The notes: a model not told the origin generated them from the sequence alone. A stretch of DNA of 64,000 nt from a bacterium (GCA_030700065.1 JAUYKH010000041.1:4659-68658), one strand, 5' to 3'. Positions 13,371-46,645 are shown, counted from the first letter of the stretch. Translations and numbers: made by a program.

Positions 13371-15800
13371 ATGCCTGCAAACAATAAAAAAAGAAAAGCG
13401 ATTATTTTAGGAGCCGGCCCTTTAGGTTTGGTGACCGCGTGGAAACTCCTGGAAAACGGCTGGAAGGTTGAGATTTACGAGAAGCAGAATATGGTTGGCG
13501 GCTTGTGCCGCACGTGGAGGTGGCGGGATTTCCTGGTTGATACCGGCCCGCATATATACCACACTCCAGACCCCCAGCTGGCGAAATTTTGGGAAGCGGA
13601 GTTTGGTGATCTTATGCTGAAGGGAGAATTTTGGTGTAAGAACGTGCGCGGTGATCAATTCGAAGAATATTGGGATTACCCTCTGTCCTGGGAAAGCATA
13701 TCGCGGTATCCGCTTAAGCTTAAGGAAAAAGTCTTGAAAGAATTGCAGGAACGCTCCGAGGAGTCCAAAGTCAAAGCAAGAAATTATACGCAATATATGG
13801 AGGCTCAAGTTGGTCCGACACTGCGTGAAATGTTTTTCAAATCGTATCCCGAAAAAATTTGGGGTATCACAACCGATGAAATGACGCCTGGCTGGGCGCC
13901 AAAACGCATTGAATTTCGGCAGAAAGTAACCCCTTTTTATCACAATCAATGGAACGCGGTCGGCAAATTCGGAACGGGATGCGTCTATGAACGAATTAAG
14001 GAAAAAATTGATTCGTTGGGCGGGAAGGTTTATTTAGGCGCGCAGGTGACCAACATAGTTCCAGAGGGCGGTGGGCGGCTGAAACGGATAACCTTCGCCG
14101 ATCGAGAGGCTGTCGAGATTGGACCGGATGACGTTGTCATCTCCAGTCTGCCAATTACCCTAACCGCCAGATTTTTTGGACATGAAAGCTCGCTGCGCTT
14201 CCGCGGCATTACTTCCGTGTATCTGGCCTACAAAAAAGAGTCGATCCTCCCAAAAGGGATTCATTGGCTCTATTATGGCTCCCCGAATGTTGATTTTAAC
14301 CGCATTACCGAACCCAAAAAACTCTCTCCTTACGTCGCGCCTACGGGCGAGACTTATCTCACTGTGGAAATTACCATGAGCCCCGGGGATGAAATCGACC
14401 GCATGGATCCGCAGGAGTTGTCAGGGCGCGTGGCCGCTCAAGTGGAAAAAGCCGGTCTGGCCCGAAAAGAGGAAGTGATTGACTCGAGCGTGAATAAGGA
14501 AAGGTTTGTCTATCCCTTGCAGTACGCGGGATATCAGGAAGAACTGGCAAAAACACGCGCTGTTGTTTCCAAATATCAGCAGCTGTTTTCCATCGGCACT
14601 GGCGGGGATTTTAGTTACGCTGATAGTCAAATTCTTTTTCATAAGGCATTTGATACGGTCTCCATTCTATGCGGAAAAGATTCGTCTTATACCCAGGTGA
14701 TTCGCCAGACTCCGCAAATTAGTTTCAACCAGATAGTTCGAATGGGTGAACGTAAAGTTGGTGATGGCGAGCAGCCCTATATCATCGCCGAAGCGGGACT
14801 CAATCACAACGGGAGCCTCGATCTGGCCAAACAGCTGGTTGACGCGGCCGCGAAAACCGGCGCGGATGCTGTAAAGTTTCAAACGTTTCAGGCGAAAAAT
14901 CGAATTTCCAGGAAAGTGAAGGCCGTCAAATATGCTGAAACAGTCATTGGCACGGAAGAGACGCTTTACGAGATGTTTGACCGATTGGCCATGTCGTTTG
15001 AGGACCAGAAACAACTGTTTGCTTACGCCAAGGATAGGGGAATCGAGGTTTTTTCGACCCCCTTTGACGAGGAAAGTGTGGATTTTCTCGAGTCGGTCGG
15101 CGTGAGGTTTTATAAAATTGCCTCAATGGATCTCGTCAATTTACCCTTGATTGAGCGCGCGGCAAAAACTGGCAAACCGATTATTCTTTCGACCGGGATG
15201 TCGACGCTTGGGCAAATAGAAGAGGCGGTCGAGGTCGTACAGAAAGCCGGTAACCCGAATTTGGTGCTTTTGCATTGCAATTCATCGTACCCGGCCGCGC
15301 CCGAGGAGATGAACCTCAATGTTATCAAGACCTTAAAGCAAGCGTTCGGGGTACCGGTGGGGCTTTCTGACCATACTTTGGGTTTAACAGTTTCCCAGAC
15401 TGCTTTAGCGATTGGAGCCAACATGATCGAGAGACATTTTACCCTGGATCGGACGTTTGAGGGACCAGACCACATTCTTTCGTCCGAGCCTCAAGAGTTT
15501 GCCGAGCTTGTGAGATTGTCCAAAAACACCCCCCCGATCAAATTGACAAAACAGATTTCCCAAATCCTTGGCGATGGAGTGAAGCGGATTCAGCCGAGCG
15601 AATACTCAACACTCAACACCCAGCGCAAGAGTCTGTATGCCGCGGCGGATATAGAGACTGGCGAGCCAATTACCAAAGAGAAGATTATTATTAAAGGCCC
15701 GGGCGGGGGACTGCTGCCAAAGTATTTGGATATGGTCGTGGGGCGCGTCGCCCGCAAACGCATCGAGAGCGATTATCCGATTACTTGGGAAGTTATTTAA
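13371..15800 (+). CDS. Fusion protein: N-terminal FAD/NAD(P)-binding amine-oxidase/UDP-galactopyranose-mutase-like oxidoreductase + C-terminal NeuB-family synthase #2
   Basis: 809-aa continuous ORF. N-term ILGAGPLGLVTAWKLLENGWKVEIYEKQNMVGGLCRT is a dinucleotide-binding fold. From about aa 440, YIIAEAGLNHNGSLDLAKQLVDAAAKTGADAVKFQTF..LHCNSSYPA..GLSDHTLG is a full NeuB domain. Confidence 0.7.
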   Translation: MPANNKKRKAIILGAGPLGLVTAWKLLENGWKVEIYEKQNMVGGLCRTWRWRDFLVDTGPHIYHTPDPQLAKFWEAEFGDLMLKGEFWCKNVRGDQFEEYWDYPLSWESISRYPLKLKEKVLKELQERSEESKVKARNYTQYMEAQVGPTLREMFFKSYPEKIWGITTDEMTPGWAPKRIEFRQKVTPFYHNQWNAVGKFGTGCVYERIKEKIDSLGGKVYLGAQVTNIVPEGGGRLKRITFADREAVEIGPDDVVISSLPITLTARFFGHESSLRFRGITSVYLAYKKESILPKGIHWLYYGSPNVDFNRITEPKKLSPYVAPTGETYLTVEITMSPGDEIDRMDPQELSGRVAAQVEKAGLARKEEVIDSSVNKERFVYPLQYAGYQEELAKTRAVVSKYQQLFSIGTGGDFSYADSQILFHKAFDTVSILCGKDSSYTQVIRQTPQISFNQIVRMGERKVGDGEQPYIIAEAGLNHNGSLDLAKQLVDAAAKTGADAVKFQTFQAKNRISRKVKAVKYAETVIGTEETLYEMFDRLAMSFEDQKQLFAYAKDRGIEVFSTPFDEESVDFLESVGVRFYKIASMDLVNLPLIERAAKTGKPIILSTGMSTLGQIEEAVEVVQKAGNPNLVLLHCNSSYPAAPEEMNLNVIKTLKQAFGVPVGLSDHTLGLTVSQTALAIGANMIERHFTLDRTFEGPDHILSSEPQEFAELVRLSKNTPPIKLTKQISQILGDGVKRIQPSEYSTLNTQRKSLYAAADIETGEPITKEKIIIKGPGGGLLPKYLDMVVGRVARKRIESDYPITWEVI

Positions 15801-16595: not shown

Positions 16596-17744
16596 ATGGA
16601 ACAGGAAATACAATATTTAGAAGCGTGGCTCAAGGAGGCGGAGCTACTGGCCAGAAAAATTAGAAATCAGGCTGATCGGAAGAATGGCATGGCGGTTTTT
16701 ACTATTTCCGCCACGGTCAAGGCCCAGGATAAAAGAAAACCCTTTTTGACGCCTTTGCGGGAAATTACGCATGGGTCTGTCGGAGGGTCGCTCGTATTTT
16801 CTCAAACACAGGCCGCTCTGCTTTGTAAACAAATCGACGGCATCGTAGATTGGATTTTGGTTGATGCCGAAAAAAAGATTCCGATCAGTTTTGGCTACAA
16901 TAAAGAAATTTTGTCGCACTTTAAGCTTCAGCTTTTGGGGCGCAAGGTCGGATATTCCCGCGAGCATATCGAGATGGGGAATCTAAGCGCGGTATGCGCC
17001 CTATATGTCAAGCAAAGCGATTTGCACGAATTTAAGGCCAATGACATTACTGTTGATTCCGTATGGCACGCGCTCTCCCACGCGAAGGGGATACTAAGCG
17101 GAAAAAAGATCGCGATTATCGGCGCCGGCAACATTGGGTTCAAGCTGGCACAACGACTCGTCGAGAGTGGGTGCAGTGTTGATCTAGTGCGCCGTGATGC
17201 GACCCGCGGAACATTGATGGCGGATCTTATCAATGCGGTCAAGCCGAAATCTACGCTGGCCGTGGCGCATTACAATCCTGATCCGCTGCAGGCGTCCGTG
17301 TTTTCCGACGCGATAATCGGCTGCACCAACGGGGTGCCGGTGATTACATGGGAGATGATGCGGGCCATGCGTCCTGATGGGGTTGTCATTGATGTCGGGA
17401 AAGGAACGATCCATGGTGATGCCTTGAGAAAGGGATTAGAGGATGGTGTAAAAATTATCCGCACGGATGTAGCACCGGGAATAGACGGGTTGATTGCCAC
17501 CATTCGAAGCACAAAAAATTTAATGGCTAATGTGATGGGCCGGAAGCTTTTGGGTGATGTGAATGTGGTGTCCGGCGGTTTTATGGGATTGGACGGTGAT
17601 GTCGTCGTAGACAATTATGAGCATCCAACTTATGTCATCGGTATTTCGGACGGTAACGGCGATATCAAGAAAGATTATCCCGAGGCAGACGCCGTGCGAA
17701 TCGACGCGGTAAAAAAATTTATTGGCGTGGAAAAGCAACTATGA
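16596..17744 (+). CDS. NAD(P)-binding Rossmann-fold dehydrogenase (AlaDH/PNT- or shikimate-DH-like C-terminal domain), function unknown
   Basis: GKKIAIIGAGNIGFKLAQRLVESGCSVDLVRRD and IIGCTNGVPVITWEMMRAMRPDGVVIDVGKGTI resemble the AlaDH/PNT C-domain pattern. Confidence 0.35.
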   Translation: MEQEIQYLEAWLKEAELLARKIRNQADRKNGMAVFTISATVKAQDKRKPFLTPLREITHGSVGGSLVFSQTQAALLCKQIDGIVDWILVDAEKKIPISFGYNKEILSHFKLQLLGRKVGYSREHIEMGNLSAVCALYVKQSDLHEFKANDITVDSVWHALSHAKGILSGKKIAIIGAGNIGFKLAQRLVESGCSVDLVRRDATRGTLMADLINAVKPKSTLAVAHYNPDPLQASVFSDAIIGCTNGVPVITWEMMRAMRPDGVVIDVGKGTIHGDALRKGLEDGVKIIRTDVAPGIDGLIATIRSTKNLMANVMGRKLLGDVNVVSGGFMGLDGDVVVDNYEHPTYVIGISDGNGDIKKDYPEADAVRIDAVKKFIGVEKQL

Positions 17745-18427
17745 AAATCTATACTGTTATCCCGGCTCGTTCCGGCAGCAAAAGCATACCAAAAAAGAAT
17801 ATTCGACCGCTGAACGGTAAGCCCCTTTTGCAGTATTCGGTTGAATATTCCCTGCAGTGCCCGCTCGTGTCGCGCACGGTTGTCTCCACGGACTCTGAAG
17901 AGTTTGCCCAAGTTGCCAGAAGCTGCGGGGCGGATGTTCCCTTTATTCGGCCGGCGGAATTCGCGCAGGACGATACGCAGGATTATCCGGTAATGCGGCA
18001 TGCTCTCGACACCCTCGAGTCTATATACAAAGAACAAATAGACGTGCTGGTTTTGCTCCGTCCGACCTCGCCATTTCGTCCGCCAAAGTTAATCGAACGG
18101 GCGGTGGAATTGTTGCAGAAGCATCCGGAAGCTACATCGGTCAGGGCAGTTACTAGGTCTACAGAGCACCCTTACAGGCAATGGGTTATAGAAGAGCCTT
18201 TTATGATTGGATTCGCGAGAGACGTGCACGAGCCTTACAATATTCCCCGTCAAAAATTGCCGAAGGTTCTTTTCCAAACCGGCGATTTGGAAATGGTGAC
18301 TAGGTCAACACTGCTTAGCGGTTCGGTTTCGGGAGATCATGTTTTGCCGCTTTACATCGCTCCGGAAGAGATGCTGGATCTCGACACTTTTTCAGACTGG
18401 GAGGAAGCAGAGAGGAGACAAACCTAA
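17741..18427 (+). CDS. Acylneuraminate cytidylyltransferase (CMP-nonulosonic acid synthetase, NeuA-like) #1
   Basis: MKIYTVIPARSGSKSIPKKNIRPLNGKPLL..VLLRPTSPFR is the classic CMP-NeuAc synthetase N-terminus. Confidence 0.75.
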   Translation: MKIYTVIPARSGSKSIPKKNIRPLNGKPLLQYSVEYSLQCPLVSRTVVSTDSEEFAQVARSCGADVPFIRPAEFAQDDTQDYPVMRHALDTLESIYKEQIDVLVLLRPTSPFRPPKLIERAVELLQKHPEATSVRAVTRSTEHPYRQWVIEEPFMIGFARDVHEPYNIPRQKLPKVLFQTGDLEMVTRSTLLSGSVSGDHVLPLYIAPEEMLDLDTFSDWEEAERRQT

Positions 18428-23379: not shown

Positions 23380-26130
23380 ATGGATTTTTATAGCAAAAAA
23401 TCAATCAAAATAATAGTGACCCTTGGTCCCGCCACCAGAACCGAGGCTGATTTGCGTCAAATCAAGGCGCGCGGGGTTGATTTTGTCCGCATCAATATGT
23501 CTCATTCCACCCTGGAAGATTTAAAGTATTTTATCGGTCTCGCGAAAAAAGTTGATATCCCGTTTATCATTGATACTGAAGGGTCCCAGGTGCGAACCGG
23601 TGAGTTGGCAGAAAATTCGATTGAGCTTGCTGAAAACGGCGAAGTCAAAATTTTTGCATACCCGAAGATTGGCGGGCCGCGGGAAATTGCGCTCAAACCC
23701 GCGTACATTCTACCCCTGCTCGAAAAAGGTGACATCCTGCATGTGGATTTTGAGAGTGCGATTTTGCGTGTCACAGACACTTCGACTCTTCCTCGGGGGT
23801 TTGTCCGAGCAAGAGCCATCAGCGCCGGCAGGGTTGGACGAAATAAAGCCGTAGTAATTGATTCTGTCATGCCCAAACTTCTCAATCTGCCGCCATTATC
23901 CAGCAAGGATTACGAATCAATCAGAATTGGCCTTCAGGAGGGGATAGGGCATGTGGGCGCTTCGTTTATGCGTTCAGCTGATTTTGTTGAGGAGGTACGC
24001 AAAGCAAGCCGGGACAAAATGCAGATCATTTCCAAAATTGAGTGCGTGGACGCGCTTAACAATCTTGGGGAAATTATCCAAGCGTCCGATTATTTGCTTT
24101 TGGACCGCGGTGATTTGAGCAAAGAGGTCCCGATCGAGAAAATTCCATTTTTGCAAAAACATATTATCAACGAGGCGCGCACTTTGGGCAAAGGCGTGTT
24201 TGTCGCCACAAACTTTTTGGAATCAATGGTCGCAAACAAGCGGCCGACCCGCGCGGAGGTGAGTGATGTTATAAACACAATTTTGGACGGGGTGTATGGC
24301 GTGGTGCTTTCGTCCGAGACAGCCATTGGCCGCTATCCCATCCGGAGTATCAACATGATGAACAAACTCATCGCAGAGGGGGAAGGAATGGTAGGCCATC
24401 AGGTGAATGGATTGTCAGATATTGGCCAAAGCAACCTCATACTCCCGCACGGGGGAAAACTGATTGATCGAGTTTTGAGGGAAATTCCCGAGTTTGACTT
24501 TCGCAACATGCCAAAGATTCAAATTGATGACGAGACTTATATGGATCTGGAACAAATCGCTCAAGGAACCTTTAGCCCGCTGGAGGGATTTATGTCCAAA
24601 GAGGAAGTACAAAGCGTGCTCGACCACACGCGTCTGCCAAGCGGAACCATCTGGCCTCTTCCCATTGTTTTGAGCGTTCCCAGCGAGCGAGCGGATAGCA
24701 TTGAAGCCGGACAAACAGTGGTTTTGACGGATCAGACCAGTCAGCCAGTGGCGCTACTGCACGTGGATGATAAGTACCAGTTTGGTTTGAGCGAGTTTGC
24801 GAAAAAATTATATGAAACAGAAAATTTGGAGCATCCGGGAGTTAGAAGGGTGACAAATTATCATCCTTGGTTTCTCGGCGGAAAAATTGATCTCATCAGA
24901 AGGCGGCCTTCGGATCACAAGGAATACGAGCTGACCCCGCGGCAGGCCAGACGTCTCTTTGCCGAACGCGGATGGCGGAGGATTGTCGGATTTCACACCC
25001 GAAATGTCATTCATCGCAGTCACGAGTTCATTCAACTCGCTGCCATGGACCGTGCTTCGGCTGACGGGCTTTTTGTCCATCCCGTGGTCGGCAAAAAAAA
25101 ACCGGGAGATTTTCATGCCGGATACATTATTCGAGCTTACGAAACAATGATGGAAAAATTTTATCCCAAGGACAGCGTGGTTTTGGGAACCTTCGCCACT
25201 TATTCCCGTTACGCCGGACCGCGCGAAGCGCTCTTTACGGCCATTTGCCGGCAAAATTTCGGCTGCAGTCATTTTATTGTAGGTCGGGACCATACCGGCG
25301 TAGGAAATTTTTACCATCCAAAGGCCAGTCACGAAATTTTTGACAAGTTTCCGGAACTTGAAATTATTCCTATCAGATTTGATAAAGTCTTTTATTCAAA
25401 AAAATTGCAAGACCACGTCCACGAGCCAGATGACCTGGGTCACGCGGAAGATGATAAGCTGCATATAAGCGGAACTGATGCGCGAAAACTTTTTGAAAAA
25501 GGCGAAGCCCCGCCGGAGTGGTTCATGCGCCCCGAGATTTCGCAAATAATTTTGGATGCAATAAATCAGGGCGAAGAAGTATTTGTTAAGGACGATCGGC
25601 CGAGCGGGTGCGTATTATGGTTCACGGGGCTTTCCGGTTCGGGCAAGACTACTGTCGCGGACCATTTGAAAGAAAAATTAGAGGTTAGAGGTTACACAGC
25701 GAAAATTTTGGACGGCGATGCCGTCAGGGCGACTCTACACAAAAATTTGGGTTTTACTCGCGAGGATATCAGGAAAAACAATGAAACCATAACGCGTTTA
25801 GCGAAGCAGGAGAGTCAAAAGCACGATTTTGTCTTGGTTCCGGTTATTTCTCCTTACGCAGAGGATCGGCAGATGGCGCGTGAGATAATGGGAAAGAATT
25901 TTTTTCTAGTCTATGCCGACTGTCCGCTTGAGGAATGTATTAAGCGAGACACGAAGGGTCTGTATCGGCGCGCGAGAGCGGGCGAGATCGAAAATCTTAT
26001 TGGTTTTTCAGAAACTAACCCTTATGAAGCGCCACAGGATTCTGATGTGACAATCAGCGCGCACCTGGAAAACCCCGAGCAAAGCTTAAAGAAGGTTTGG
26101 CAGTTTCTTAAAAGCAGGAGATTTGTATGA
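23380..26130 (+). CDS. Tri-domain fusion: pyruvate-kinase-like catalytic domain + ATP sulfurylase (sulfate adenylyltransferase) + APS kinase
   Basis: aa 1-330 carry PK barrel/A-domain signatures (IVTLGPATRT, RINMSHS, IIDTEGSQVRTG, ISKIE, LLLDRGDLSKEV, ATNFLESMVANKRPTRAEVSDV, VVLSSETAIG). The middle domain has IVGFHTRNVIHRSHE and HPVVGKKKPGDF of ATP sulfurylase. The C-terminal domain has WFTGLSGSGKTTVA of APS kinase. It is one 916-aa ORF. Confidence 0.75.
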   Translation: MDFYSKKSIKIIVTLGPATRTEADLRQIKARGVDFVRINMSHSTLEDLKYFIGLAKKVDIPFIIDTEGSQVRTGELAENSIELAENGEVKIFAYPKIGGPREIALKPAYILPLLEKGDILHVDFESAILRVTDTSTLPRGFVRARAISAGRVGRNKAVVIDSVMPKLLNLPPLSSKDYESIRIGLQEGIGHVGASFMRSADFVEEVRKASRDKMQIISKIECVDALNNLGEIIQASDYLLLDRGDLSKEVPIEKIPFLQKHIINEARTLGKGVFVATNFLESMVANKRPTRAEVSDVINTILDGVYGVVLSSETAIGRYPIRSINMMNKLIAEGEGMVGHQVNGLSDIGQSNLILPHGGKLIDRVLREIPEFDFRNMPKIQIDDETYMDLEQIAQGTFSPLEGFMSKEEVQSVLDHTRLPSGTIWPLPIVLSVPSERADSIEAGQTVVLTDQTSQPVALLHVDDKYQFGLSEFAKKLYETENLEHPGVRRVTNYHPWFLGGKIDLIRRRPSDHKEYELTPRQARRLFAERGWRRIVGFHTRNVIHRSHEFIQLAAMDRASADGLFVHPVVGKKKPGDFHAGYIIRAYETMMEKFYPKDSVVLGTFATYSRYAGPREALFTAICRQNFGCSHFIVGRDHTGVGNFYHPKASHEIFDKFPELEIIPIRFDKVFYSKKLQDHVHEPDDLGHAEDDKLHISGTDARKLFEKGEAPPEWFMRPEISQIILDAINQGEEVFVKDDRPSGCVLWFTGLSGSGKTTVADHLKEKLEVRGYTAKILDGDAVRATLHKNLGFTREDIRKNNETITRLAKQESQKHDFVLVPVISPYAEDRQMAREIMGKNFFLVYADCPLEECIKRDTKGLYRRARAGEIENLIGFSETNPYEAPQDSDVTISAHLENPEQSLKKVWQFLKSRRFV

Positions 26131-26948
26131 TAAAATTTTGGGACGAAACCAATTTGGCGATTGAGGCGGCCAGGGCGGCTGGCAAGAAAATTTTGCAGGT
26201 GTATCAAACTGATTTCAAGACAGAACGAAAGGCTGACTATGAACCGATAACTTTGGCGGACCGGACAAGTCAAAAGACAATTCTTGAAGTTTTGGGTTCC
26301 TCTCATCTGCCGGTCCTTTCCGAAGAGCAGGAGGACGATTTATTACGTTTGAAGCAGGAACGCGTGTGGATTGTGGATCCTCTGGATGGGACAGCTGATT
26401 TCGTGGCTCGGACTGATGAATTTTGCGTAATGATTGCATTGGTAGAGAGTCAGATTTCCATACTCGGAGTAATTTATGAGCCGACTAATGATACTTTGTT
26501 TGTGGCCCAAAAGGGGGAAGGGGCGTATATCTGCAAGAATGGTCATTGGGAAAGACTGCGGGTGAGCAATGTACAGGGTCTTGACCAAATTCGGGCGGTC
26601 ATGAGCAGAAATCATTTGTTGGAAGAAGAAAAGGACATTCTGGCAAAAATAGGAGTTAAAAACTTTGTCCAAATGGGCAGTGCGGGACTGAAGGCCGCGG
26701 GGATTGCGGAAGGACGGTTTGATTTGTATTTCACGATGACAAACAAAATAAAACAATGGGATACAGCCGCGGCAAATTGTCTAATAAACGAGGCGGGCGG
26801 AAAAATAACAGATCTCGCGGGCAAAGACCTTATCTATAATATGGAAGATGTTTATCACAGAGATGGTATTTTGATGAGCAATGGAAAGATTCACGGGGAA
26901 GTGCTCAAGATTTATAGGGGTTTCAAAAATAAGCAATCAAATAATTAA
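26127..26948 (+). CDS. Inositol-monophosphatase-family protein (CysQ-like 3'(2'),5'-bisphosphate nucleotidase, putative)
   Basis: WIVDPLDGTADF motif of the IMPase/CysQ family. CysQ role is inferred from adjacency to the PAPS synthase. Confidence 0.55.
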   Translation: MIKFWDETNLAIEAARAAGKKILQVYQTDFKTERKADYEPITLADRTSQKTILEVLGSSHLPVLSEEQEDDLLRLKQERVWIVDPLDGTADFVARTDEFCVMIALVESQISILGVIYEPTNDTLFVAQKGEGAYICKNGHWERLRVSNVQGLDQIRAVMSRNHLLEEEKDILAKIGVKNFVQMGSAGLKAAGIAEGRFDLYFTMTNKIKQWDTAAANCLINEAGGKITDLAGKDLIYNMEDVYHRDGILMSNGKIHGEVLKIYRGFKNKQSNN

Positions 26949-26965: not shown

Positions 26966-27940
26966 ATGTTGGAACAATTCACTGACAAATTAAGAGGGAA
27001 AAGGATATTAGTCACCGGGGGTGCCGGGTTTTTGGGTTCGCACTTATGCGGAAGACTTCTCGCACATGGAGCAAAAGTGATCTGTTTTGATGATTTGAGC
27101 ACGGGGACAAGGGAAAACATTAACGAATATCTCGGTAGGGACGAATTTGCCTTCGTTACTGGCGATGCAAATAAATTTGCCGATCTTTCGAACGTTTTTG
27201 ACGCAGAGAAGATTGACTATGTTTTTCACTACGCCGCACGGGTTGGCGTAAAACGCACTACAGAACAGCCCCTCGAGGTCCTGGAAGACGTGGAAGGTAT
27301 AAAAAATGTGTTGCATCTTTCCAATAAGCATAACGTCGAAAAGGTTATCTTTTCTTCTTCGTCGGAAGTGTACGGCGAGCCGGTCGAGTTTCCAGAACGG
27401 GAGAACGGTCACGTTAACCCCAAACTCCCATATGCTTCAGTTAAACACATTGGCGAGAAATTCATGGAGTCTTACCACAAAGTCCACGGCCTGCGGACCT
27501 GTTCACTTCGCTTCTTCAATATTTATGGGCCCAAGCAAGACTCCTCGGCTTACGGTTTTGTGGTAGGGATATTTATCAAACAGGCGCTTTCTGGTGGCCC
27601 CTTGACCGTGCTCGGCGACGGGACGCAGACGCGGGATTTTGTGTTCGTGGATGACAATATCAACAGTTCCATTCTCGCCTTGCTCACGAACGCAACCGAT
27701 GGGCATGTGGTCAATATCGGCACTGGCCGTCCCATGACCATCTTGGATATGGCCGAGCTTGTAATCAAAGTCACCGGCAAAGATGTAAAGATTGAATTTT
27801 TGCCTTTCCGCGAGGGTGAAATCAGACATCGCTTCCCCGACGTGAGCAAAATGCGCAGCCTCCTGGGTTACAGGCCGATGCACACGATCGAGGAAGGCGT
27901 TCGTAAAACCATGGAGTGGTATCAGGGGCGATTATCGTAA
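26966..27940 (+). CDS. NAD-dependent epimerase/dehydratase (extended SDR; UDP-sugar 4-epimerase/decarboxylase-like)
   Basis: ILVTGGAGFLGSHLCGRLL and catalytic YASVKHIGEK. Confidence 0.7.
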   Translation: MLEQFTDKLRGKRILVTGGAGFLGSHLCGRLLAHGAKVICFDDLSTGTRENINEYLGRDEFAFVTGDANKFADLSNVFDAEKIDYVFHYAARVGVKRTTEQPLEVLEDVEGIKNVLHLSNKHNVEKVIFSSSSEVYGEPVEFPERENGHVNPKLPYASVKHIGEKFMESYHKVHGLRTCSLRFFNIYGPKQDSSAYGFVVGIFIKQALSGGPLTVLGDGTQTRDFVFVDDNINSSILALLTNATDGHVVNIGTGRPMTILDMAELVIKVTGKDVKIEFLPFREGEIRHRFPDVSKMRSLLGYRPMHTIEEGVRKTMEWYQGRLS

Positions 27941-27951
27941 TTTTAGAAGCC

Positions 27952-29253
27952 ATGTTATTTCGAAAGTTGAAAAATAAATTTCGCTCAAGTATTGTCCCCT
28001 TCTTTATCAAGTTGAGCGTTGCATTGAACTGGCCGCGGCTAACCGCCTGGATTTTGGTCGCGGTTGTTCAGCAGATGAACGAGGGCGGAGAATATAGCGT
28101 GCTGTGTCTGCGACGGAGTGTTTTTATGGACGATATCCAGGCAATGATTCGCTATAGTGGTCGCATTCGGTATTTTGCGATTGAGAGAATGCATTTTACC
28201 ATAATCCTCACCCATTTTTTGTCCAAGGACGAGCAGAGAGCGATTACCGAGAACAATTATCACACACATCCAATTGGGCTCGAGGGAAAAAAGAAATACT
28301 ATGAGTATCTGGGACAAGTACTTCCGATTTTACAAAAAAAGATCGGCTTTCAAGCCATTTTCTCGGGAAATTTTGGATACGTTCAGCAACAGGAGCTGAT
28401 GCAGCTTTGCAAAGACTCAAATATTCCCTTCATAGTTTTTCACAAGGAAGGGCTGATTGCCGGATTTTTTGAGGGGGCGAACGAAATGTACCAGGGACGC
28501 AAGTTCGTGGGCGATAGGTTGCTCATCTACAACGAGAAAATAACCCGGGCATTATTGGATAAAGTATCCGAGTTAACTCCGGAAAAAATCCGTTTAGTCG
28601 GGGTGCCGCGACTTGATCGTTACAAGGAGCCGTTTTACATCCCTCGACGCGCACAAATAGTTTTTTTCTCCTTTTACATAAAAAATTGGATGCCGAAAAT
28701 CATCCATGACGAAAAAAAATATGAAGCAGCCGAAGAGCGGGCATTGTCTTTTCACCGGTGGATTTTAAATTTTGCCAAAAAACATCCAGAGTTTGATGTG
28801 ATTTTAAAAACGAAGGCCGCTGATTTTTACTTGGAATACGCAAAAAAAATATTCGCCGACCCCTCACTACTGAAATTGCCGAACTTAACGGTAAGAAATT
28901 ATGGGGATCCTGTCGAACTGATCAAACAGTCGAGGGCGGTCTTGGGCTACAATTCAATGGCATTAATTGAAGCGCTCATCGCCGGTAAACCGATTTTTTC
29001 ACCTTTTTTTGGGGATTTGGCTGGTCCAGGGAAAGCTTGGGACTATTTTAGCAATTATCCGGAATTGATTAATTATATAAAAACTGAGGATGACCTGGAA
29101 ATGCTTCTTGACCTGGAACGGTTTACGCCTCACGATCAGAAGCTGGTCACGGAGTTTGTCGAGCAGTTTGCCTATCGCCCCGATGGTCAGGCGAGCTTTC
29201 GGGCGGAGCAGGAAGTAATCAACGTTATCGAGGAGTACGCCAATGCCGGTTAA
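27952..29253 (+). CDS. Putative GT-B-like glycosyl/glycerophosphotransferase (TagF-like), start uncertain
   Basis: LVGVPRLDRY and GYNSMALIEALIAGKPIF resemble the Glyphos_transf/GT-B C-terminal pattern. ATG 27952 follows the upstream stop, and an alternative ATG lies at 28126. Confidence 0.3.
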   Translation: MLFRKLKNKFRSSIVPFFIKLSVALNWPRLTAWILVAVVQQMNEGGEYSVLCLRRSVFMDDIQAMIRYSGRIRYFAIERMHFTIILTHFLSKDEQRAITENNYHTHPIGLEGKKKYYEYLGQVLPILQKKIGFQAIFSGNFGYVQQQELMQLCKDSNIPFIVFHKEGLIAGFFEGANEMYQGRKFVGDRLLIYNEKITRALLDKVSELTPEKIRLVGVPRLDRYKEPFYIPRRAQIVFFSFYIKNWMPKIIHDEKKYEAAEERALSFHRWILNFAKKHPEFDVILKTKAADFYLEYAKKIFADPSLLKLPNLTVRNYGDPVELIKQSRAVLGYNSMALIEALIAGKPIFSPFFGDLAGPGKAWDYFSNYPELINYIKTEDDLEMLLDLERFTPHDQKLVTEFVEQFAYRPDGQASFRAEQEVINVIEEYANAG

Positions 29254-29959
29254 TAAAGTCAAATTTGCAGCGTTTAGCCCAGAAGTGGTAGAAATTCACG
29301 AAATGTTTCGCGCGCAGCCAGCGTCGGAGCATATCGCAAAACCGCCGACGCTTGAAGCATTATTTCAGGTGTGCCAGGCGAATGATTTAAAGCGAGTTTT
29401 GGAACTGGGCGGGGGTTTGGGGACAATTAGCCGTCTTTTGCTAAAATATTCCAACGCGCAACTTGATATTTACGAGCATGATGTCTATTTTCGGGATCGC
29501 CTGCGCGAAAATCTCGCCGAATTTACCGGTCGGTATCAAATTTTATCAGATTATAGAACACTACCTCCGCACCGCGACTACGATTTGGTTGTGGTGGACG
29601 GGGGGCATAGCCGCAAAGATGCCCCGGGCGAGGCGAGCGGTTTCAATGCCGCGATTTGGTTTTATTTGAATTATTTGCAATCAGCGCCATTAGTGTATGT
29701 CGAAGGGAAGCGCCATATTCAAAGACTTTGGGCCAGAAAAGCGATTGCCAAACGGTATATCTACTCTCTTCAGCGTTTTGCTGATACAGAATATTTAGGC
29801 GAGCTTGCAAGTGGGGGAGTTCTCATCCACAAAGTGCGAAGTGCTATCTTTCCACGGCGATTGCTCAATTTCATTTTTTGGGAAATAATCGAGGGGAATA
29901 CAGTTCGCAACCATCTATCATTTCGACTGCGGAAATTAACGGACAGGTTTAAAATATGA
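29243..29959 (+). CDS. Class I SAM-dependent O-methyltransferase (family-3/CmcI-like)
   Basis: VLELGGGLGTISRLL motif I and DLVVVDGGH, typical of Methyltransf_24-type enzymes. Confidence 0.5.
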   Translation: MPVNKVKFAAFSPEVVEIHEMFRAQPASEHIAKPPTLEALFQVCQANDLKRVLELGGGLGTISRLLLKYSNAQLDIYEHDVYFRDRLRENLAEFTGRYQILSDYRTLPPHRDYDLVVVDGGHSRKDAPGEASGFNAAIWFYLNYLQSAPLVYVEGKRHIQRLWARKAIAKRYIYSLQRFADTEYLGELASGGVLIHKVRSAIFPRRLLNFIFWEIIEGNTVRNHLSFRLRKLTDRFKI

Positions 29960-30861: not shown

Positions 30862-31973
30862 AAGTCAAAATTTTCGGAGCGGGATCAATTGGAAATCACC
30901 TTACCCAGGCCTCAAGGCGGAAGGGGTGGGATGTCACGGTCGTGGATATTGATCCGGCCGCGCTCAAGCGCATGAAAGAAGAGATTTATCCAAAGCGATA
31001 CGGTAGTTGGGACCCGCAAATCAAACTGATGACCCCCGAAGAGGCACCAAAGGGAGGATTTGACGTCATCATGGTAGGTACGCCGCCGCCGGCCAGACTG
31101 AAAGTCGCCATGGAGGCTTTGGAGGGAAAACCTAGAGTTTTACAGCTTGAAAAGCCCTACTTCGTCCCCATGCTAGATGAAAGCCTGAAACGTGAAAACC
31201 AAGAGTTTATGGAGAAGGCAAAATCTTTGGGCATAAAAGTAGTGGTTGGGTACGAATACGCTCTTGGAGAGAGCGCAAAAAAGGCGTTAGATTTTATTTC
31301 GGATAAGGGTTTTGGAAAAATCCGGGTTTTGGAAGTTGCCGTGCGGGAGGAATGGAGCGGGGCATTGGCTGCCCATCCATGGCTCAAAGGGCCGGCTGAT
31401 ACCTATCTTGGTTTTTGGCAGAAAGGGGGAGGCGCGTTAAGCGAGCATTCGCATGCTATACACTACTGGCAACATTTCGCCAGTCACTTAGGTCTGGGAA
31501 CGATTGATGAAGTTTCTGCATCAATGAGAATGGTAAAAGACGCGTTGTTAGATTACGACGAATTAACATATTTGAACATAAAAACTGACCAGAGTTTTAC
31601 CGGCACGATTGTTCAGGATGTGGTAACCGATCCTCCGTATCTGTCTTTGTTTATTCAAAGAGAGAAGGCCTTTGTTAAATGGCTGCGACGGTCTGTTCCG
31701 GGCAAAGGAAATGTCGAGACAATCACGTATGGGAAAAAAGACGAGAATGGTTGGCTGGTCACGACAGAAGATATCCCCGTCGCGAGACCGGACGACTTTT
31801 ACCCAGAGATAAACCATATTGCTGATCTGCTCGAGGAAAAAGTGAAAATTGAGGATTCCCCGATTCGTTTGGAGATGGGTGCACACGTAACCGCGGTAGT
31901 GACGGCAGCACACGAGTCTCGGCTGAACAATGGAAAATTTATTAAAGTAACAAAATATGCCGGTTATCGATAA
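30858..31973 (+). CDS. NAD(P)-binding oxidoreductase (Gfo/Idh/MocA-like N-terminus)
   Basis: MKVKIFGAGSIGNHLTQASRRKGWDVTVVDID Rossmann fold. Confidence 0.45.
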   Translation: MKVKIFGAGSIGNHLTQASRRKGWDVTVVDIDPAALKRMKEEIYPKRYGSWDPQIKLMTPEEAPKGGFDVIMVGTPPPARLKVAMEALEGKPRVLQLEKPYFVPMLDESLKRENQEFMEKAKSLGIKVVVGYEYALGESAKKALDFISDKGFGKIRVLEVAVREEWSGALAAHPWLKGPADTYLGFWQKGGGALSEHSHAIHYWQHFASHLGLGTIDEVSASMRMVKDALLDYDELTYLNIKTDQSFTGTIVQDVVTDPPYLSLFIQREKAFVKWLRRSVPGKGNVETITYGKKDENGWLVTTEDIPVARPDDFYPEINHIADLLEEKVKIEDSPIRLEMGAHVTAVVTAAHESRLNNGKFIKVTKYAGYR

Positions 31974-32649
31974 AAAAATACTTGCGATCATCCCGGCCCG
32001 CGGCGGATCCAAAGGCTTGCCGGGCAAAAATATAAAATTGTTGGTGGGTAAACCGCTCATCGCTTATTCAATTGAAGCGGCAAAAAAATCAAAGCACGTT
32101 GATCGTGTAATCGTGACCAGCGACGACAAGAATATTTTGGAAACTTCTGCACCATTTGGGGCTGAACTTATCCAAAGACCCGCAGAGCTGGCGCTTGATG
32201 AAACCAAGATGCCTCCAGTAATCCAACATGTTATTGACACATTAAAAACAAAGGATAATTATCGACCGGATATTGTTTTGCTTTTGCAGCCAACGTGTCC
32301 ATTGCGCACGAGCAAGCATATAGATGAGGCCATCGAGCATTTTTCGGCCAATGATTTTGACAGCCTCCTAAGCGTTCTGGTTTTATACAAGCAGCAGTTT
32401 GTGGTCGAGAATGAAAAATACTTGCAGCCGCTTCTGAAGGAAAGGCCAAACCGGCAGGACAGAAAGCCGGTGATATTGGAAAATGGCGTGATTTATTTGA
32501 CCATGATAAATCTGATGGAGCAGGGGACAATAGTGGGTGGAAAGATAGGTTATTATCCGATGCATATCGCTGATTCGCCAAACATTGACGACCAGGAAGA
32601 TTTTTTGTTTGCCGAAAGATTGATAAAAGGATCGCGTGACCATGAATAA
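31957..32649 (+). CDS. neuA: Acylneuraminate cytidylyltransferase (NeuA-like) #2
   Basis: ILAIIPARGGSKGLPGKNIKLLVGKPLIAYSIEAA..LLQPTCPLR. Confidence 0.75.
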   Translation: MPVIDKKILAIIPARGGSKGLPGKNIKLLVGKPLIAYSIEAAKKSKHVDRVIVTSDDKNILETSAPFGAELIQRPAELALDETKMPPVIQHVIDTLKTKDNYRPDIVLLLQPTCPLRTSKHIDEAIEHFSANDFDSLLSVLVLYKQQFVVENEKYLQPLLKERPNRQDRKPVILENGVIYLTMINLMEQGTIVGGKIGYYPMHIADSPNIDDQEDFLFAERLIKGSRDHE

Positions 32650-33730
32650 AGAAATCAAAATTGGACGAGTGGTTATTGGAGAGCAATATCCGTTTGTAGT
32701 CATTCCCGAGGCGGGCGATAATCACCACGGCAGCCTCGCCTCCGCCAAAGAGATTGCCCATGCCGCGCTTGAGGCCGGATCCAAGATTATTAAATTTCAA
32801 CTGCACTTGCCGGACGAGGAGATGGATCGAGAGGGCATGCGTCAAACGTCCTCGGAGATGTTTAAGAAATGGGGCGATTTGTACGGCTTTATTCAGAAAA
32901 ATCAGTTGTCTGTCGAAGATCACTCGGAACTTATCCGTTACTGCGAAAAGATCGGCATCCAGTATTTTTGCACACCTTTCTCGGCGAAGGCGGCACAAAT
33001 ACTAACAGAAATTGGCGGTGATGCCGCGTTCAAAATTGGTTCTGGAGAAACCGAAGATCTGCCAATGATTGAGGAGGTCGCTGCTTTGGGTAAGCCGATG
33101 ATGGTTTCCACTGGAATGAGCACTTATGAGGAGATTGATTTAACAGTCGCTGCTATTAAGCAGAAAAATATCCCGTTTTCGTTGGCGCATTGCATATCGT
33201 CCTATCCACCAAAGTCCCTTTCTGAACTTCACCTGGGAGTCATCAGAGAGCTTGGAGCGCGCTACGATACAGTTGTCGGTTTTTCGGATCATACGCCGCC
33301 CGAAGGGCTGGTAATCGAGGGAGGAAAGCCAATTTCAGAAGAGGCAATTTTGTTCGGCGCGATGGGCGCAGGTGCCAGATATCTAGAGAAACATTTTACT
33401 GTCGATAGAAAAGGAAAAGACGCGGATAGCTGGTTTTCTCATGATCCGCAGACCCTCAAAGATCTTATAAATACTGCCGCCGAACTTGATAAGGCGATGG
33501 ATAATAAGCGGGAGGTGTTTGAAGAGGAAAAAGGCGTCTGGATTTGGGCCAAGCGGAGCCTGGTCGCGGCCGAAGATATTCCGGCCGGAGCGAAGATTAC
33601 CCGAGAAATGCTCAAAAGCAAACGTCCGGGAACAGGAATTAGGTCCAAAGATTATCACTCGATTTTGGGGAAAATTGTTAAACACAACATCGCCAAGGAT
33701 AAAATATTACTGTTAACTGATTTAGAATGA
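32636..33730 (+). CDS. neuB: NeuB-family sialic-acid-type synthase #3
   Basis: FVVIPEAGDNHHGSLASAKEIAHAALEAGSKIIKFQLH..AHCISSYPP..GFSDHTPP plus SAF tail. Confidence 0.8.
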   Translation: MTMNKEIKIGRVVIGEQYPFVVIPEAGDNHHGSLASAKEIAHAALEAGSKIIKFQLHLPDEEMDREGMRQTSSEMFKKWGDLYGFIQKNQLSVEDHSELIRYCEKIGIQYFCTPFSAKAAQILTEIGGDAAFKIGSGETEDLPMIEEVAALGKPMMVSTGMSTYEEIDLTVAAIKQKNIPFSLAHCISSYPPKSLSELHLGVIRELGARYDTVVGFSDHTPPEGLVIEGGKPISEEAILFGAMGAGARYLEKHFTVDRKGKDADSWFSHDPQTLKDLINTAAELDKAMDNKREVFEEEKGVWIWAKRSLVAAEDIPAGAKITREMLKSKRPGTGIRSKDYHSILGKIVKHNIAKDKILLLTDLE

Positions 33731-34881
33731 GAAAAATTTGCGCAATCACGGCAAACCGGGCGGATTTCAGCCGGATGGAAACCGCGCTGCGGGAAATAAA
33801 AAAGCATAAAGATCTCGAGCTGCAGCTGGTCGTCATGGGATCTCACCTTTTGTACGATACCGGCAACACGATCGAAGAGATCAGGCAAAAGGGGTTTGGT
33901 GTTGACCGGACTATTTATATGGAAGTGAGCGGCAGCAATCCTTCGACAATGAGCAAATCAGTGGGGCTCGCGATTATCGAACTCTCCTCGGTCTTGGATA
34001 ATTTAAAACCTGATCTGGTTTTGGTTCCAGTGGATCGTTTTGAGTCCCTCGCCATGGGGGTGGCGGCGTCTCTGATGAATTTGCCTATCGCACACATTCA
34101 GGGCGGCGAGATTACTGGCACGATCGATGAGAGCATTAGGCATGCTCTAACCAAGTTGTCGCATATTCATTTTCCGGCCACTGAACTCTCCCGTCAGCGA
34201 ATTATCCGGATGGGGGAGCCGGAAGACCTGGTGTTCAATGTCGGGTGTCCGGGGACTGATTTATTGCTTGAGGCGCCGGTTTTGAACGCCAAGCAGACGA
34301 TTGAGTTGCTTAACCAGGATCTTGCCAATCCGCTCGATCCCGAGAGACCTTTTATATTGATGGTGCAGCATCCAGTGACAACGGAGTTTGGAAGTGCCAC
34401 TAAAGAGATTACGGAATCAATGGAGGCCATGTCCGAGTTTGAAGAGCAGATCATTATTCTCTGGCCGAATATTGACGCGGGAGCGGATGAATTGTCCAGG
34501 GTCCTGCGAAAATATACAATTTTTGCGAAAAACGGAAAAGGAATGAGGATTTTTAAACATTGGCCGACCGAAACTTTCGCCAATATCATGCGTAATGCGG
34601 TCTGCCAGGTAGGAAATTCCTCGAGCGGGATCAGGGAATCGTGTTATTTCGGCACCCCGGTAGTGAATGTTGGCTCGCGCCAACAGGATCGGGAAAGGGG
34701 GAAAAACGTGATGGATGTAGGGTATGATCGTCGCGAGATCGCCGCGGCTGTCCGCCAGCAAATCAAACACGGGAAGTATAAGATGGAGGCAATATATGGC
34801 GATGGCACAGCCGGGAGACAAATTGCCGATATTTTGGCATCCATAAAAATTCCAAGCGTACAAAAGAGGATCAGATACTAG
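33727..34881 (+). CDS. neuC: UDP-N-acetylglucosamine 2-epimerase (hydrolysing; NeuC-like)
   Basis: MRKICAITANRADFSRMETALREI..LVVMGSHLL..HIQGGEITGTIDESIRHALTKLSHIHF is the Epimerase_2 pattern. Confidence 0.8.
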   Translation: MRKICAITANRADFSRMETALREIKKHKDLELQLVVMGSHLLYDTGNTIEEIRQKGFGVDRTIYMEVSGSNPSTMSKSVGLAIIELSSVLDNLKPDLVLVPVDRFESLAMGVAASLMNLPIAHIQGGEITGTIDESIRHALTKLSHIHFPATELSRQRIIRMGEPEDLVFNVGCPGTDLLLEAPVLNAKQTIELLNQDLANPLDPERPFILMVQHPVTTEFGSATKEITESMEAMSEFEEQIIILWPNIDAGADELSRVLRKYTIFAKNGKGMRIFKHWPTETFANIMRNAVCQVGNSSSGIRESCYFGTPVVNVGSRQQDRERGKNVMDVGYDRREIAAAVRQQIKHGKYKMEAIYGDGTAGRQIADILASIKIPSVQKRIRY

Positions 34882-34883
34882 AT

Positions 34884-35807
34884 ATGTCTAAAAGCAAGGG
34901 TCCGGATTTTTTGATAGTCGGGTTGGAAAGAAGCGGAACAAGCTGGGTTTCGGCCCTGCTGAATAGTCATCCGGAGATTGCCTGCATCCCCCCGATGCCG
35001 TTTCGCAAGGAGTCGGGAGAATTTAGAGAAATCGGGGAGATTCATTTGTTTAATACGCTCGCGAGTCTAGAAGTTGGAACAACAGACAAATTTACACGGC
35101 CGGTCGCCAACTACAAAACGACTGATATCAAAATATTCGCAGATTTTGCTGACCTGGAAGGAAAAATTCCCAAAGAGGAGCTGTATAATACATTTATTGA
35201 GCGGTACAACGAGCTTTGCGAATCTTATCGGAAAGGCAAGAAACTTGTGGGAGAGTCTACGCCGGCCTATGTCTTTCACCTTAATTTTATTGACCGATTT
35301 TATCCCGGGATTAAAAAACTTTGCATCATCCGCGATCCCAAAGACAAAGTCGTCTCCTGGCATTTCAATCTTGTGAGAAAAGGGCGGAAACAGGAAGACG
35401 AAAAAATTTCCGATGAATTTATCAAGGAATATTGCGAGACGAGGATTGCCAAAGAATATCAGGCCTTGCTGGATTACCAGGGGCAGATTCACTGTTTTAC
35501 TTACGAAGCCCTGACACACAACCCCCGCAAGGTTGTATCGGGAGTTTTGCGGCACCTTGAAGTAAATGACGACATTGCGCTTACTGACCAAATGGTCAAA
35601 GAAGCATCGTTTGAAAATTTAACCGCAAAGGACAGCGGAAGGGGTAGACAGCAAGGCGAGCAATCTCTAAAAAGTCATTTCCGCAAAGGCATTATTGGAG
35701 ACTGGAAAACCCATCTAACCAATACCCAGATCCATTATATCGAGGGCGAGACCCTACAACTTCGGAAAGAGGTCTTCGAAAAGTACCGCGTCGATCCAAT
35801 CGAATAA
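34884..35807 (+). CDS. PAPS-dependent sulfotransferase
   Basis: 5'-PSB motif LERSGTSW and 3'-PB motif RDPKDKVVSWHF. Confidence 0.65.
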   Translation: MSKSKGPDFLIVGLERSGTSWVSALLNSHPEIACIPPMPFRKESGEFREIGEIHLFNTLASLEVGTTDKFTRPVANYKTTDIKIFADFADLEGKIPKEELYNTFIERYNELCESYRKGKKLVGESTPAYVFHLNFIDRFYPGIKKLCIIRDPKDKVVSWHFNLVRKGRKQEDEKISDEFIKEYCETRIAKEYQALLDYQGQIHCFTYEALTHNPRKVVSGVLRHLEVNDDIALTDQMVKEASFENLTAKDSGRGRQQGEQSLKSHFRKGIIGDWKTHLTNTQIHYIEGETLQLRKEVFEKYRVDPIE

Positions 35808-41092: not shown

Positions 41093-41095
41093 GAG

Positions 41096-42472: not shown

Positions 42473-42560
42473 TATGCAGGGGATTATAGCAAAAATCCGG
42501 CATATTGCATAGATTTTGGAATTTGAAAAAAAGTCCAAAAAATGATATAATATTAATAAT

Positions 42561-42618: not shown

Positions 42619-42652
42619 TAGATTGGGATTATATAATAGAAACAAAACTAAA

Positions 42653-44407: not shown

Positions 44408-44411
44408 CTAC

Positions 44412-46641: not shown

Positions 46642-46645
46642 TAAT

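Follow-up and report, generated by a model that had tools for sequence, protein, structure and literature searches.

Why should a pyruvate kinase be joined to the enzymes that activate sulfate? The question is raised by a gene at positions 23380-26130 of a 64,000-nucleotide stretch of bacterial DNA (GCA_030700065.1 JAUYKH010000041.1:4659-68658; hereafter the window, with positions counted from its first letter). The gene encodes, in a single polypeptide, a pyruvate kinase (PK) domain, an ATP sulfurylase (Sat) and an adenosine 5'-phosphosulfate (APS) kinase (APSK), and the last two activities lead to 3'-phosphoadenosine 5'-phosphosulfate (PAPS), the universal sulfate donor. According to our analysis, the three enzymatic domains are what they appear to be, their active sites are intact, and across the family they are linked to APS kinases, sulfotransferases and CysQ-like phosphatases. 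Based on comparative genomics and on a precedent in vitro, we propose, with a probability of roughly 70%, that the PK domain regenerates ATP from phosphoenolpyruvate (PEP) for PAPS synthesis.

The open reading frame (ORF) begins with ATG, ends with TGA and comprises 916 aa. A Pfam scan of the protein revealed four domains in series, a PK barrel followed by PUA_2, ATP-sulfurylase and APS_kinase. The gene is divided as follows:

23380-26130, + strand: whole gene, PK / PUA-like / ATP sulfurylase / APS kinase, 916 aa (ORF and domain parse)
23398-24390, + strand: PK A and B domains, aa 7-337 (PF00224, PK alignments, Foldseek)
23599-23874, + strand: PK B domain, the mobile lid, approximately aa 74-165 (predicted strands 80-161, spacing as in PykF, invariant NK156)
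24391-24441, + strand: flexible PK-to-PUA linker, aa 338-354 (low predicted local distance difference test score, pLDDT; poorly conserved alignment columns)
24442-24900, + strand: PUA-like N-terminal domain of ATP sulfurylase, aa 355-507 (PF14306, PUA_2, E 5e-45)
24922-25557, + strand: ATP sulfurylase catalytic domain, aa 515-726 (PF01747, E 2e-77)
25606-26055, + strand: APS kinase domain, aa 743-892, reaching the C-terminus (PF01583, E 1e-49)

The junction between Sat and APSK thus comprises aa 727-742 (about nt 25558-25605). A preliminary description of this locus had proposed an in-frame fusion of PK, Sat and APSK with junctions near 24370 and 25560; both estimates lie close to the linkers delineated here, and the fusion itself was borne out by the Pfam and NCBIfam domain parse, in which all three expected domains were detected, together with PUA_2. 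The full-length protein was modeled confidently by AlphaFold2 with a 100-sequence alignment (mean pLDDT 89.5, predicted template modeling score 0.75), and internally the pLDDT fell below 50 only at aa 340-350, in the PK-to-PUA linker. In this model, the PUA-like domain of Sat occupies the place of the missing C domain of PK. A sequence search of the PDB yielded no entry in which PK is joined with Sat.

The PK domain matches almost the entire PF00224 profile (aa 7-324 against profile positions 2-328 of 328, E 6e-66), and no PK_C domain was found in the Pfam scan of the fusion protein. As in pyruvate kinases, a (beta/alpha)8 A domain carries an inserted beta-barrel B domain; the lid formed by the latter is intact in the AlphaFold2 model, with beta strands 80-161 at high pLDDT. 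Foldseek superposed the N-terminal domain on PKM2 and on the Leishmania PK (LmPYK) over about 350 residues with an rmsd of 2.4-3.4 A and 30-33% identity. Alignment to solved pyruvate kinases (2e28, 3t05 and PykF) placed R37, N39, S41, H42, D65, T66, R72, K156, K219, E221, D245, T277 and E313 where those enzymes bind PEP, Mg2+, K+ and the nucleotide, and we take their equivalents in the muscle enzyme to be R72, N74, S76, H77, D112, T113, R119, K206, K269, E271, D295, T327 and E363. Each of the 13 residues is invariant or at least 96% conserved among 120 family representatives, and the nucleotide-binding motif N155-K156 is invariant. Because the active site is so well preserved while the overall identity among these approximately 120 clusters is only 52-73%, purifying selection appears to act on PK catalysis. 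The motifs on which the earlier claim of a near-complete set of catalytic signatures had rested (RINMSHS, IDTEGSQVRTG, SKIE, DRGDLSKEV, ATNFLESM and LSSETA) are all present in the translated ORF, and this claim is upheld by the alignment, the conservation, the model and the structural superposition. The PK module is, therefore, apparently catalytically competent, as judged from its residues and its predicted fold.

Compared with canonical enzymes such as PykF of E. coli (1pky) and the PK of G. stearothermophilus (2e28), the domain shares the A TIM barrel, the B lid and the full set of catalytic residues, whereas it has no C-terminal allosteric and tetramerization domain, carries changes in several motifs and is always found with sulfate activation. 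These changes form a signature: TEG[SAP]Q in place of the canonical TKGPE, DRGDLS[KR]E in place of ARGDLGxE, and ATN in place of ATQ. In an exhaustive phmmer search with the PK domain against 1.84 billion representative sequences, roughly the top 125 matches all bore this signature, and canonical pyruvate kinases of about 470 aa ranked below them with at most 38% identity. On these sequence grounds, we assign the domain to a distinct PK subfamily that lacks the C domain; its ties to PAPS synthesis are described below.

The Sat portion scored 352.3 bits with TIGR00339 (sopT), above the cutoff of 322.95, which places it among the Sat-type ATP sulfurylases, and its core was superposed by Foldseek on the archaeal and bacterial sulfurylases 8a8d and 1v47 with a TM score of 0.93-0.94 and an rmsd of about 2. 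In its motifs FHTRNVIHRSHE and HFIVGRDHTG, the R, N, H, H and G-R-D-H residues do not vary within the family. HTRNVIH replaces QxRNPxH in the RNP loop, and the two active-site changes, Q to H and P to V, are family-specific variants. The APSK portion scored 176.5 bits with TIGR00455 (apsK; cutoff 138.7), as expected of an APS kinase, and its P-loop GLSGSGKTT and the motifs LDGDAVR, VISPY and KGLYRRARAGEI are conserved in the family. With NF004040 (PRK05537), the model for bifunctional Sat/APSK proteins, the score of 433.1 bits remained under the cutoff of 669; the architecture agrees with this model, and the lineage is divergent. The best match both by sequence in the PDB (353 bits, aa 376-916) and by Foldseek was the Sat-APSK of Aquifex aeolicus (2gks), in which the PUA-like, Sat and APSK domains follow in the same order on one chain with both motif sets, but which, unlike the window protein, has no PK domain. 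This Aquifex-type protein is the nearest counterpart of the C-terminal 560 aa, and canonical pyruvate kinases are that of the N-terminal 340 aa.

The distribution of the architecture was assessed in 185,579 species, with one genome per species; 487 candidate stretches passed the tblastn step, and 80 loci were fetched and inspected. All 80 encode either PK-Sat (52) or PK-Sat-APSK (28) with the same junction, so the architecture cannot be called rare. This junction also recurs in the homologous proteins, which at a clustering level of 90% identity make up at least 120 clusters; the best 120 all carry PK, PUA_2 and ATP-sulfurylase, and about two thirds of these also carry APS_kinase. The carriers include CPR (candidate phyla radiation)/Patescibacteria, DPANN archaea, Chloroflexota, Acidobacteriota, NC10, Omnitrophota and Planctomycetota, as well as the cultured Flavobacterium sp. 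Leaf82 and [Flexibacter] sp. ATCC 35103, and the same architecture was thus recovered in CPR, DPANN, Chloroflexota, Acidobacteriota and cultured bacteria alike. A protein identical to that of the window (P0001) occurs on two contigs and under two NCBI protein accessions (MDP3994153.1 and MDZ4244263.1), with Candidatus Doudnabacteria as the source of the metagenome-assembled genome (MAG) and the name "sulfate adenylyltransferase"; in public databases, members of the family are labeled "sulfate adenylyltransferase," "pyruvate kinase" or "hypothetical." Two relatives are longer: in P0086 (1019 aa), PK-Sat is accompanied by the nucleotidyltransferase domains PF00483 and PF12804, and P0009 (1341 aa) contains an extra region to which no domain was assigned.

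The proteins bearing the PK signature occur in several architectures: PK-Sat, which forms the majority, PK-Sat-APSK, PK-APSK without Sat (P0127 and P0187), PK-Sat-APSK-CysQ (in locus L021) and standalone pyruvate kinases of 324-376 aa. The conserved linkage is, therefore, that of PK with Sat or APSK, and more than half of the family has no fused APSK domain. The split forms repeat the linkage of the fused ones. The PK-APSK gene lies within a glycan locus with a Sulfotransfer_1 gene; one standalone PK (L084) shares its operon with two genes, one sulfotransferase-like and one for Sat-APSK, and another (L086) has a sulfotransferase-like gene on one side and an APS kinase gene on the other. The contigs of two further members, P0136 and P0231, are too short to show a usable gene context. 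On the 6.6-11.3-kb contigs that carry the PK-APSK fusions (L082:3070-4671 and L083:1805-3406) and the adjacent PK and APSK genes (L086:3958-5461), no ATP sulfurylase was found, and the genes at the contig edges in L086 and L084 are not Sat.

In 13 of the 80 loci, PK-Sat is followed immediately by a separate APS kinase gene, and in six further loci the next gene downstream encodes an APSK fused to another domain (CysQ in two, sulfotransferase in two and a Sat-like domain in two). The fusions of APSK with CysQ and with sulfotransferase are found among L035:15042-16364, L008:5652-7028, L022:12134-13510 and L015:12269-13660; a CysQ-APSK fusion in the reverse order occurs at L069:12243-13577, and the PK-Sat-APSK-CysQ fusion at L021:3-3230 has at least 1075 aa, its N-terminus being cut by the contig end. 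For 45 loci, the flanks extend for 5 kb or more in either direction; 35 of these have a sulfotransferase no further than 10 kb away, and 10 have CysQ. In the unbiased Pfam census of the 133 immediately flanking genes, the four commonest families were APS_kinase (20), Sulfotransfer_3 (19), Sulfotransfer_1 (17) and Inositol_P (8), and none of the 25 commonest families corresponded to PAPS reductase, sulfite reductase, pyrophosphatase or sulfate permease. An assimilatory role, in which PAPS would be reduced to sulfite, was rejected on this basis, since neither of the two reductases appears there. The census also shows that the term "self-contained," applied earlier to the PAPS supply of this locus, was an overstatement, as no sulfate transporter or pyrophosphatase accompanies the module.

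Five loci of Chloroflexota and NC10 seemed to contain a second sulfurylase, a "Sat-APSK" gene next to PK-Sat. In four of these neighbors (L053:14090-15784, L055:2828-4519, L056:9842-11605 and L061:4494-6251), the RNP/HxxH and GRD motifs have been lost, as exemplified by YQPHSSLYRMDE and VSRNHA, and the APSK portion is intact; the neighbor in L062 has kept most of the Sat motifs. Redundancy of two sulfurylases was, therefore, discarded for the four loci, where the neighbors are APS kinases whose Sat-like domain is dead, similar to the two-domain APS kinase of T. denitrificans (3cr8), and where PK-Sat is the working sulfurylase because the adjacent motifs are degenerate. To judge from their motifs, these degenerate genes are probably mis-annotated as bifunctional.

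In the window, the fusion gene is directly followed by a phosphatase gene:

26127-26948, + strand: CysQ-like 3'(2'),5'-bisphosphate nucleotidase of the inositol monophosphatase (IMPase) family (PF00459, E 3e-53)

The preliminary description had identified this gene as IMPase/CysQ-type, which agrees with the PF00459 match and with the best NCBIfam model, TIGR01331 (CysQ), although the score of 195.3 bits is below the cutoff of 228.8. The motifs DPLDGT and WDTAA are visible in the translation, and the assignment to CysQ draws additional support from the APSK-CysQ fusions and the recurrent adjacency in other loci. The ATG of the gene overlaps the TGA of the fusion as ATGA, an arrangement from which we read the two genes as translationally coupled.

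The following scheme can be suggested for the function of the module. Sat would convert ATP and sulfate into APS and pyrophosphate (PPi), APSK would phosphorylate APS with ATP to give PAPS and ADP, and PK would return ADP to ATP with PEP as the donor and pyruvate as the product; the net reaction would be the conversion of sulfate, ATP and PEP into PAPS, PPi and pyruvate. The local ATP/ADP ratio would thereby be held high for the strongly endergonic sulfurylase step, removal of ADP would prevent the dead-end complex of APSK with ADP and APS and would keep ADP out of the APS site of Sat, and the large free energy of PEP hydrolysis would be added to the pathway. PAPS would be consumed by the sulfotransferase or sulfotransferases of the cluster, and the inhibitory 3'-phosphoadenosine 5'-phosphate (PAP) that they release would be hydrolyzed by the CysQ-like phosphatase, a role suggested by the family-level match, the APSK fusions and the translational coupling.

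The biochemical literature makes such an arrangement understandable. The Sat reaction is highly endergonic, and its product APS inhibits it strongly; APS kinase becomes trapped as a dead-end E-ADP-APS complex, and ADP occupies the Sat site nearly as APS does (PMC3734648). In vitro, PAPSS1 made practically no PAPS and ADP built up unless a PK/PEP module was added, so that productive synthesis requires the removal of ADP (PMC9885120). The engineered PAPS cascades with PK/PEP use the identical set of activities, Sat, APSK and PK, but as separate commercial enzymes mixed in vitro and not as one natural polypeptide (PMC9885120). The metazoan PAPSS1/2 also make PAPS from sulfate with one polypeptide, and inhibition by APS and ADP is central to their kinetics (PMC3734648); these eukaryotic proteins have the reverse order, APSK and then Sat, and no PK, whereas Sat precedes APSK in the window protein, which is thus not of the metazoan type. 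In the Sat-pyrophosphatase fusions of stramenopiles and haptophytes, the same logic is followed, since a natural enzyme that pulls the equilibrium of Sat is joined to Sat (PMC2275785), although there the partner removes PPi and not ADP, and the pathway is eukaryotic and assimilatory. The idea that PK could regenerate ATP from PEP at the site of synthesis, already put forward in the preliminary description, gains from the linkage of both fused and split forms to Sat, APSK and sulfotransferase and from the in vitro precedent (PMC9885120), and we retain it as a proposal.

Several observations weigh against this proposal. PK is joined most often to Sat and not to the ADP-producing APSK; as Sat itself yields no ADP, ADP recycling offers only an indirect rationale for over half of the family members. 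The removal of PPi must come from elsewhere, because no pyrophosphatase accompanies the module. The domain scored 274.2 bits with TIGR01064, the pyruvate kinase equivalog (cutoff 306.4), with positions 3-342 of 476 matched; the protein thus has neither the C-terminal alpha/beta domain nor the full-length equivalog score of a pyruvate kinase, the score being under the cutoff because this domain is missing. Finally, there are invariant changes beside the PK active site, which in muscle numbering we take to be K114 to E, P116 to S and E117 to Q, and the subfamily also differs by G to S and I/V to K after the Mg-ligand Asp and by Q to N after the Thr proton donor. Such changes next to the active site could shift the cation dependence or the substrate preference.

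A bolder form of the proposal deserves separate mention. The fusion might work as an obligately coupled, PEP-driven PAPS synthase, in which the adenine nucleotide would be near-catalytic, the ATP made by PK would be handed directly to the Sat and APSK sites, and Sat would replace the PK C domain in the oligomer. We consider this tentative, with odds well below even. If it were true, sulfate activation would run on PEP and not on the bulk ATP pool, which would explain why the module is common in energy-poor CPR and DPANN symbionts, and chemoenzymatic sulfation would gain a PAPS source that consists of one protein and needs no further assembly.

The same active-site changes could also mean that the PK domain has diverged in specificity, so that it uses PEP or acts on another nucleotide or acceptor (GDP, an AMP-derived species or an APS-like ligand) and does not simply convert ADP to ATP. 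The exchanges TEGSQ/TKGPE, DRGDLSKE/ARGDLGxE, ATN/ATQ and L[AS]AETA/LSGETA are invariant and lie near the K+/nucleotide and Mg sites, the subfamily forms a deep separate clade with no more than 38% identity to canonical pyruvate kinases, and its frequent partner is Sat rather than the producer of ADP. We nevertheless regard this as rather unlikely: every residue known to bind PEP, Mg2+, K+ or the phosphates of ADP/ATP is kept without variation, the B domain still forms its complete lid in the model, and the PK-APSK fusions and the operons of separate PK and APSK genes fit ADP as the substrate.

Slightly less probable still is an ordinary PK that is uncoupled from PAPS synthesis, either as a neutral or co-regulatory fusion or as the sole housekeeping PK of reduced CPR and DPANN genomes. 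Many carriers are indeed CPR and DPANN members with minimal metabolism, and operon neighbors can give rise to fusions. The subfamily, however, occurs in large genomes too (a 10.4-Mb Ardenticatenaceae contig, Acidobacteriota and the cultured Flavobacterium), where a housekeeping PK would be expected; in its fused and split forms alike, it accompanies genes for Sat, APSK or sulfotransferase, and it was not seen with glycolytic genes; and it lacks the allosteric C domain that housekeeping pyruvate kinases use.

Dead domains do occur in the enzymes of sulfate activation, as shown by the Sat-like domain of T. denitrificans 3cr8, the degenerate Sat-like domains in the loci studied here and the APSK-like regulatory domain of fungi. 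By analogy, the barrel could be a non-catalytic scaffold or sensor, in which the binding of PEP or ADP gates PAPS synthesis, or which replaces the PK C domain or an oligomerization surface of Sat. Yet dead domains lose their catalytic motifs, as the degenerate Sat neighbors have done, whereas the catalytic residues of PK are invariant across hundreds of lineages; conservation and fold together lead us to reject the non-catalytic barrel, which the preliminary description had named among the findings that would refute it, as very improbable. That the fusion is an artefact of assembly or gene calling (through chimerism of the contig, or because a stop or frameshift was overlooked where the domains meet), as might be feared for a MAG, is refuted by the identical protein on two contigs with two accessions, the same junctions in all 80 loci, isolate genomes included, the uniform GC and GC3 over the three parts of the gene and the confident full-length model.

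Is the module specific to glycan sulfation? The homologue of Flavobacterium sp. Leaf82 and [Flexibacter] sp. ATCC 35103 (925 aa, 46% identical, same four domains; also under a non-whole-genome-shotgun accession, AQX14468.1) lies in non-ribosomal peptide synthetase (NRPS) loci:

L074:820-17474: NRPS locus of Leaf82 (NZ_LMMA01000008.1)
L075:818-12772: NRPS locus of ATCC 35103 (NZ_MTQF01000013.1)

The order of genes is a pyridoxal phosphate-dependent enzyme, a 2442-aa NRPS ending in a thioesterase (TE), a sulfotransferase-like gene, the fusion and a second NRPS. The nucleophile of the TE is Cys (GHCKG), as in the beta-lactam-forming TE of SulM in sulfazecin biosynthesis (C2818); in the same pathway, SulN carries out the PAPS-dependent N-sulfonation of the carrier-bound peptide, and SulI contains an APS-kinase domain (PMC11298585). 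The monobactam cluster BGC0001672 has been assigned to ATCC 35103, as unique to that strain (PMC9248904), but the same arrangement is seen in Leaf82. Both clusters are, on the evidence of their gene content, probable monobactam clusters, and by analogy with sulfazecin, PK-Sat-APSK most likely supplies PAPS for monobactam N-sulfonation there. Since the homologue serves an NRPS cluster, the module may be seen as a general PAPS supply unit and not as a glycan-specific one.

Dedicated supplies of PAPS are also encoded by NodPQ with NodH and by RaxPQ with RaxST, without PK, and the sulfurylases of NodPQ and RaxPQ are of the CysD/CysN type, not the Sat type. In sulfazecin biosynthesis, the APSK domain of SulI and SulN represent cluster-encoded sulfate activation beside a sulfotransferase, likewise without PK (PMC11298585). 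For the natural fusion of PK with Sat, we found no description in the searchable full-text literature, which lacks most papers of subscription journals, so that an earlier mention is possible; this is in line with the preliminary description, whose author was not aware of a described architecture of this kind. The matches to "pyruvate kinase" concerned reagents of coupled assays, and two papers retrieved (PMC12361377 and PMC10839748) proved irrelevant to the fusion.

Overall, PK-Sat(-APSK) appears to be a widespread, conserved and mechanistically sensible natural design, whose enzymology we offer as a proposal. The known natural answers to the awkward synthesis of PAPS are fusions in which the partner of Sat is APSK, pyrophosphatase or APS reductase; joining with PK, in one protein or in one operon, would be a further answer, which mirrors what biocatalysis engineers add by hand. 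The labels "sulfate adenylyltransferase" and "pyruvate kinase" can mislead metabolic reconstructions of CPR and DPANN, for instance when the protein is counted as a glycolytic PK. As the PK subfamily marks loci for sulfated products, it could serve as a handle for genome mining, and the cultured carriers, Leaf82 and ATCC 35103, make the hypothesis directly testable.

In the window, the fusion is gene 23 of 37 in a large co-directional cluster, which also contains a predicted consumer of PAPS:

190-41092, + strand: co-directional glycan cluster, 37 mostly overlapping genes
34884-35807, + strand: PAPS-dependent sulfotransferase (PF00685, 7e-24, 85 bits, cutoff 22; PF13469, 7e-22)
11125-12177, + strand: PseI (TIGR03586, 483 bits, above cutoff)
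13371-15800, + strand: NeuB-FAD fusion, 809 aa
32636-33730, + strand: NeuB-like synthase
33727-34881, + strand: NeuC (TIGR03568, 392 bits)
6012-6770, 17741-18427 and 31957-32649, + strand: three CMP-sugar-type cytidylyltransferases
38837-41092, + strand: Wzy_C protein with tetratricopeptide repeats (TPR)
42623-44407, 44493-45626 and 46646-47995: PilB-like, PilC-like and PilX-like type IV pilus genes

The sulfotransferase, which starts 2 nt after NeuC, had been noted earlier as lying downstream of the fusion, and this was confirmed by PF00685 and by the motifs GLERSGTSW (5'-PSB-like) and IIRDPKDKVVSW (3'-PB-like), which resemble PAPS-binding loops; it is a probable PAPS consumer. The cluster also encodes DegT-type and class-III aminotransferases, methyltransferases, an acetyltransferase, an ATP-grasp enzyme, a carbamoyltransferase, a family 2 glycosyltransferase (GT2), a Capsule_synth-like protein and a deacetylase, and beyond it lie the gene for an initiating sugar transferase, which is read from the other strand, and the type IV pilus genes. 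The module of the window thus probably serves a large nonulosonic-acid-containing glycan cluster and the sulfation of a surface glycan. A sulfated glycan containing nonulosonic acid, as had been predicted earlier, is a reasonable expectation for this organism, whereas placing the sulfate on the nonulosonic acid itself would be conjecture that our data do not support, as the module associates with sulfotransferases generally.

A role of PK in making PEP for the three NeuB-type synthases was considered and rejected: the genes with which the PK subfamily co-occurs are those for Sat, APSK and sulfotransferase and not NeuB, and nonulosonic-acid genes are present in only 27 of the 45 full-flank loci and in none of the NRPS loci. 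The operation of PK toward PEP synthesis is also disfavored on thermodynamic grounds.

Some further features of the window may be mentioned. The three NeuB-family synthases, of which one is a clear PseI, and the three cytidylyltransferases of one cluster suggest that it produces several nonulosonic or ulosonic acids. The protein encoded at 13371-15800 (+ strand) has an unusual architecture, with an N-terminal FAD amine-oxidase or UDP-galactopyranose-mutase (GLF)-like domain and a NeuB-type synthase that scores just under the cutoff of TIGR03569 (388 bits); of the 80 related loci, 19 contain a homologue, a count that may reflect the NeuB part alone. The gene for the O-antigen-ligase-like Wzy_C protein with TPR and the gene for the initiating sugar transferase adjoin the type IV pilus genes (38837-47995), and we presume that transfer of the glycan to pilin by a PglL/PilO-type O-oligosaccharyltransferase is a possibility. 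Four ORFs of the cluster, of 218-445 aa (27916-29253, 29243-29959, 36818-37474 and 37510-38769), had no Pfam match at E<=0.001-0.01. Beyond the cluster, the gene at 47967-50495 (- strand) encodes an 842-aa Mur-ligase-like protein, in which Mur_ligase_M and Mur_ligase_C are confined to the C-terminal 320 residues and about 520 N-terminal residues lie outside of them.

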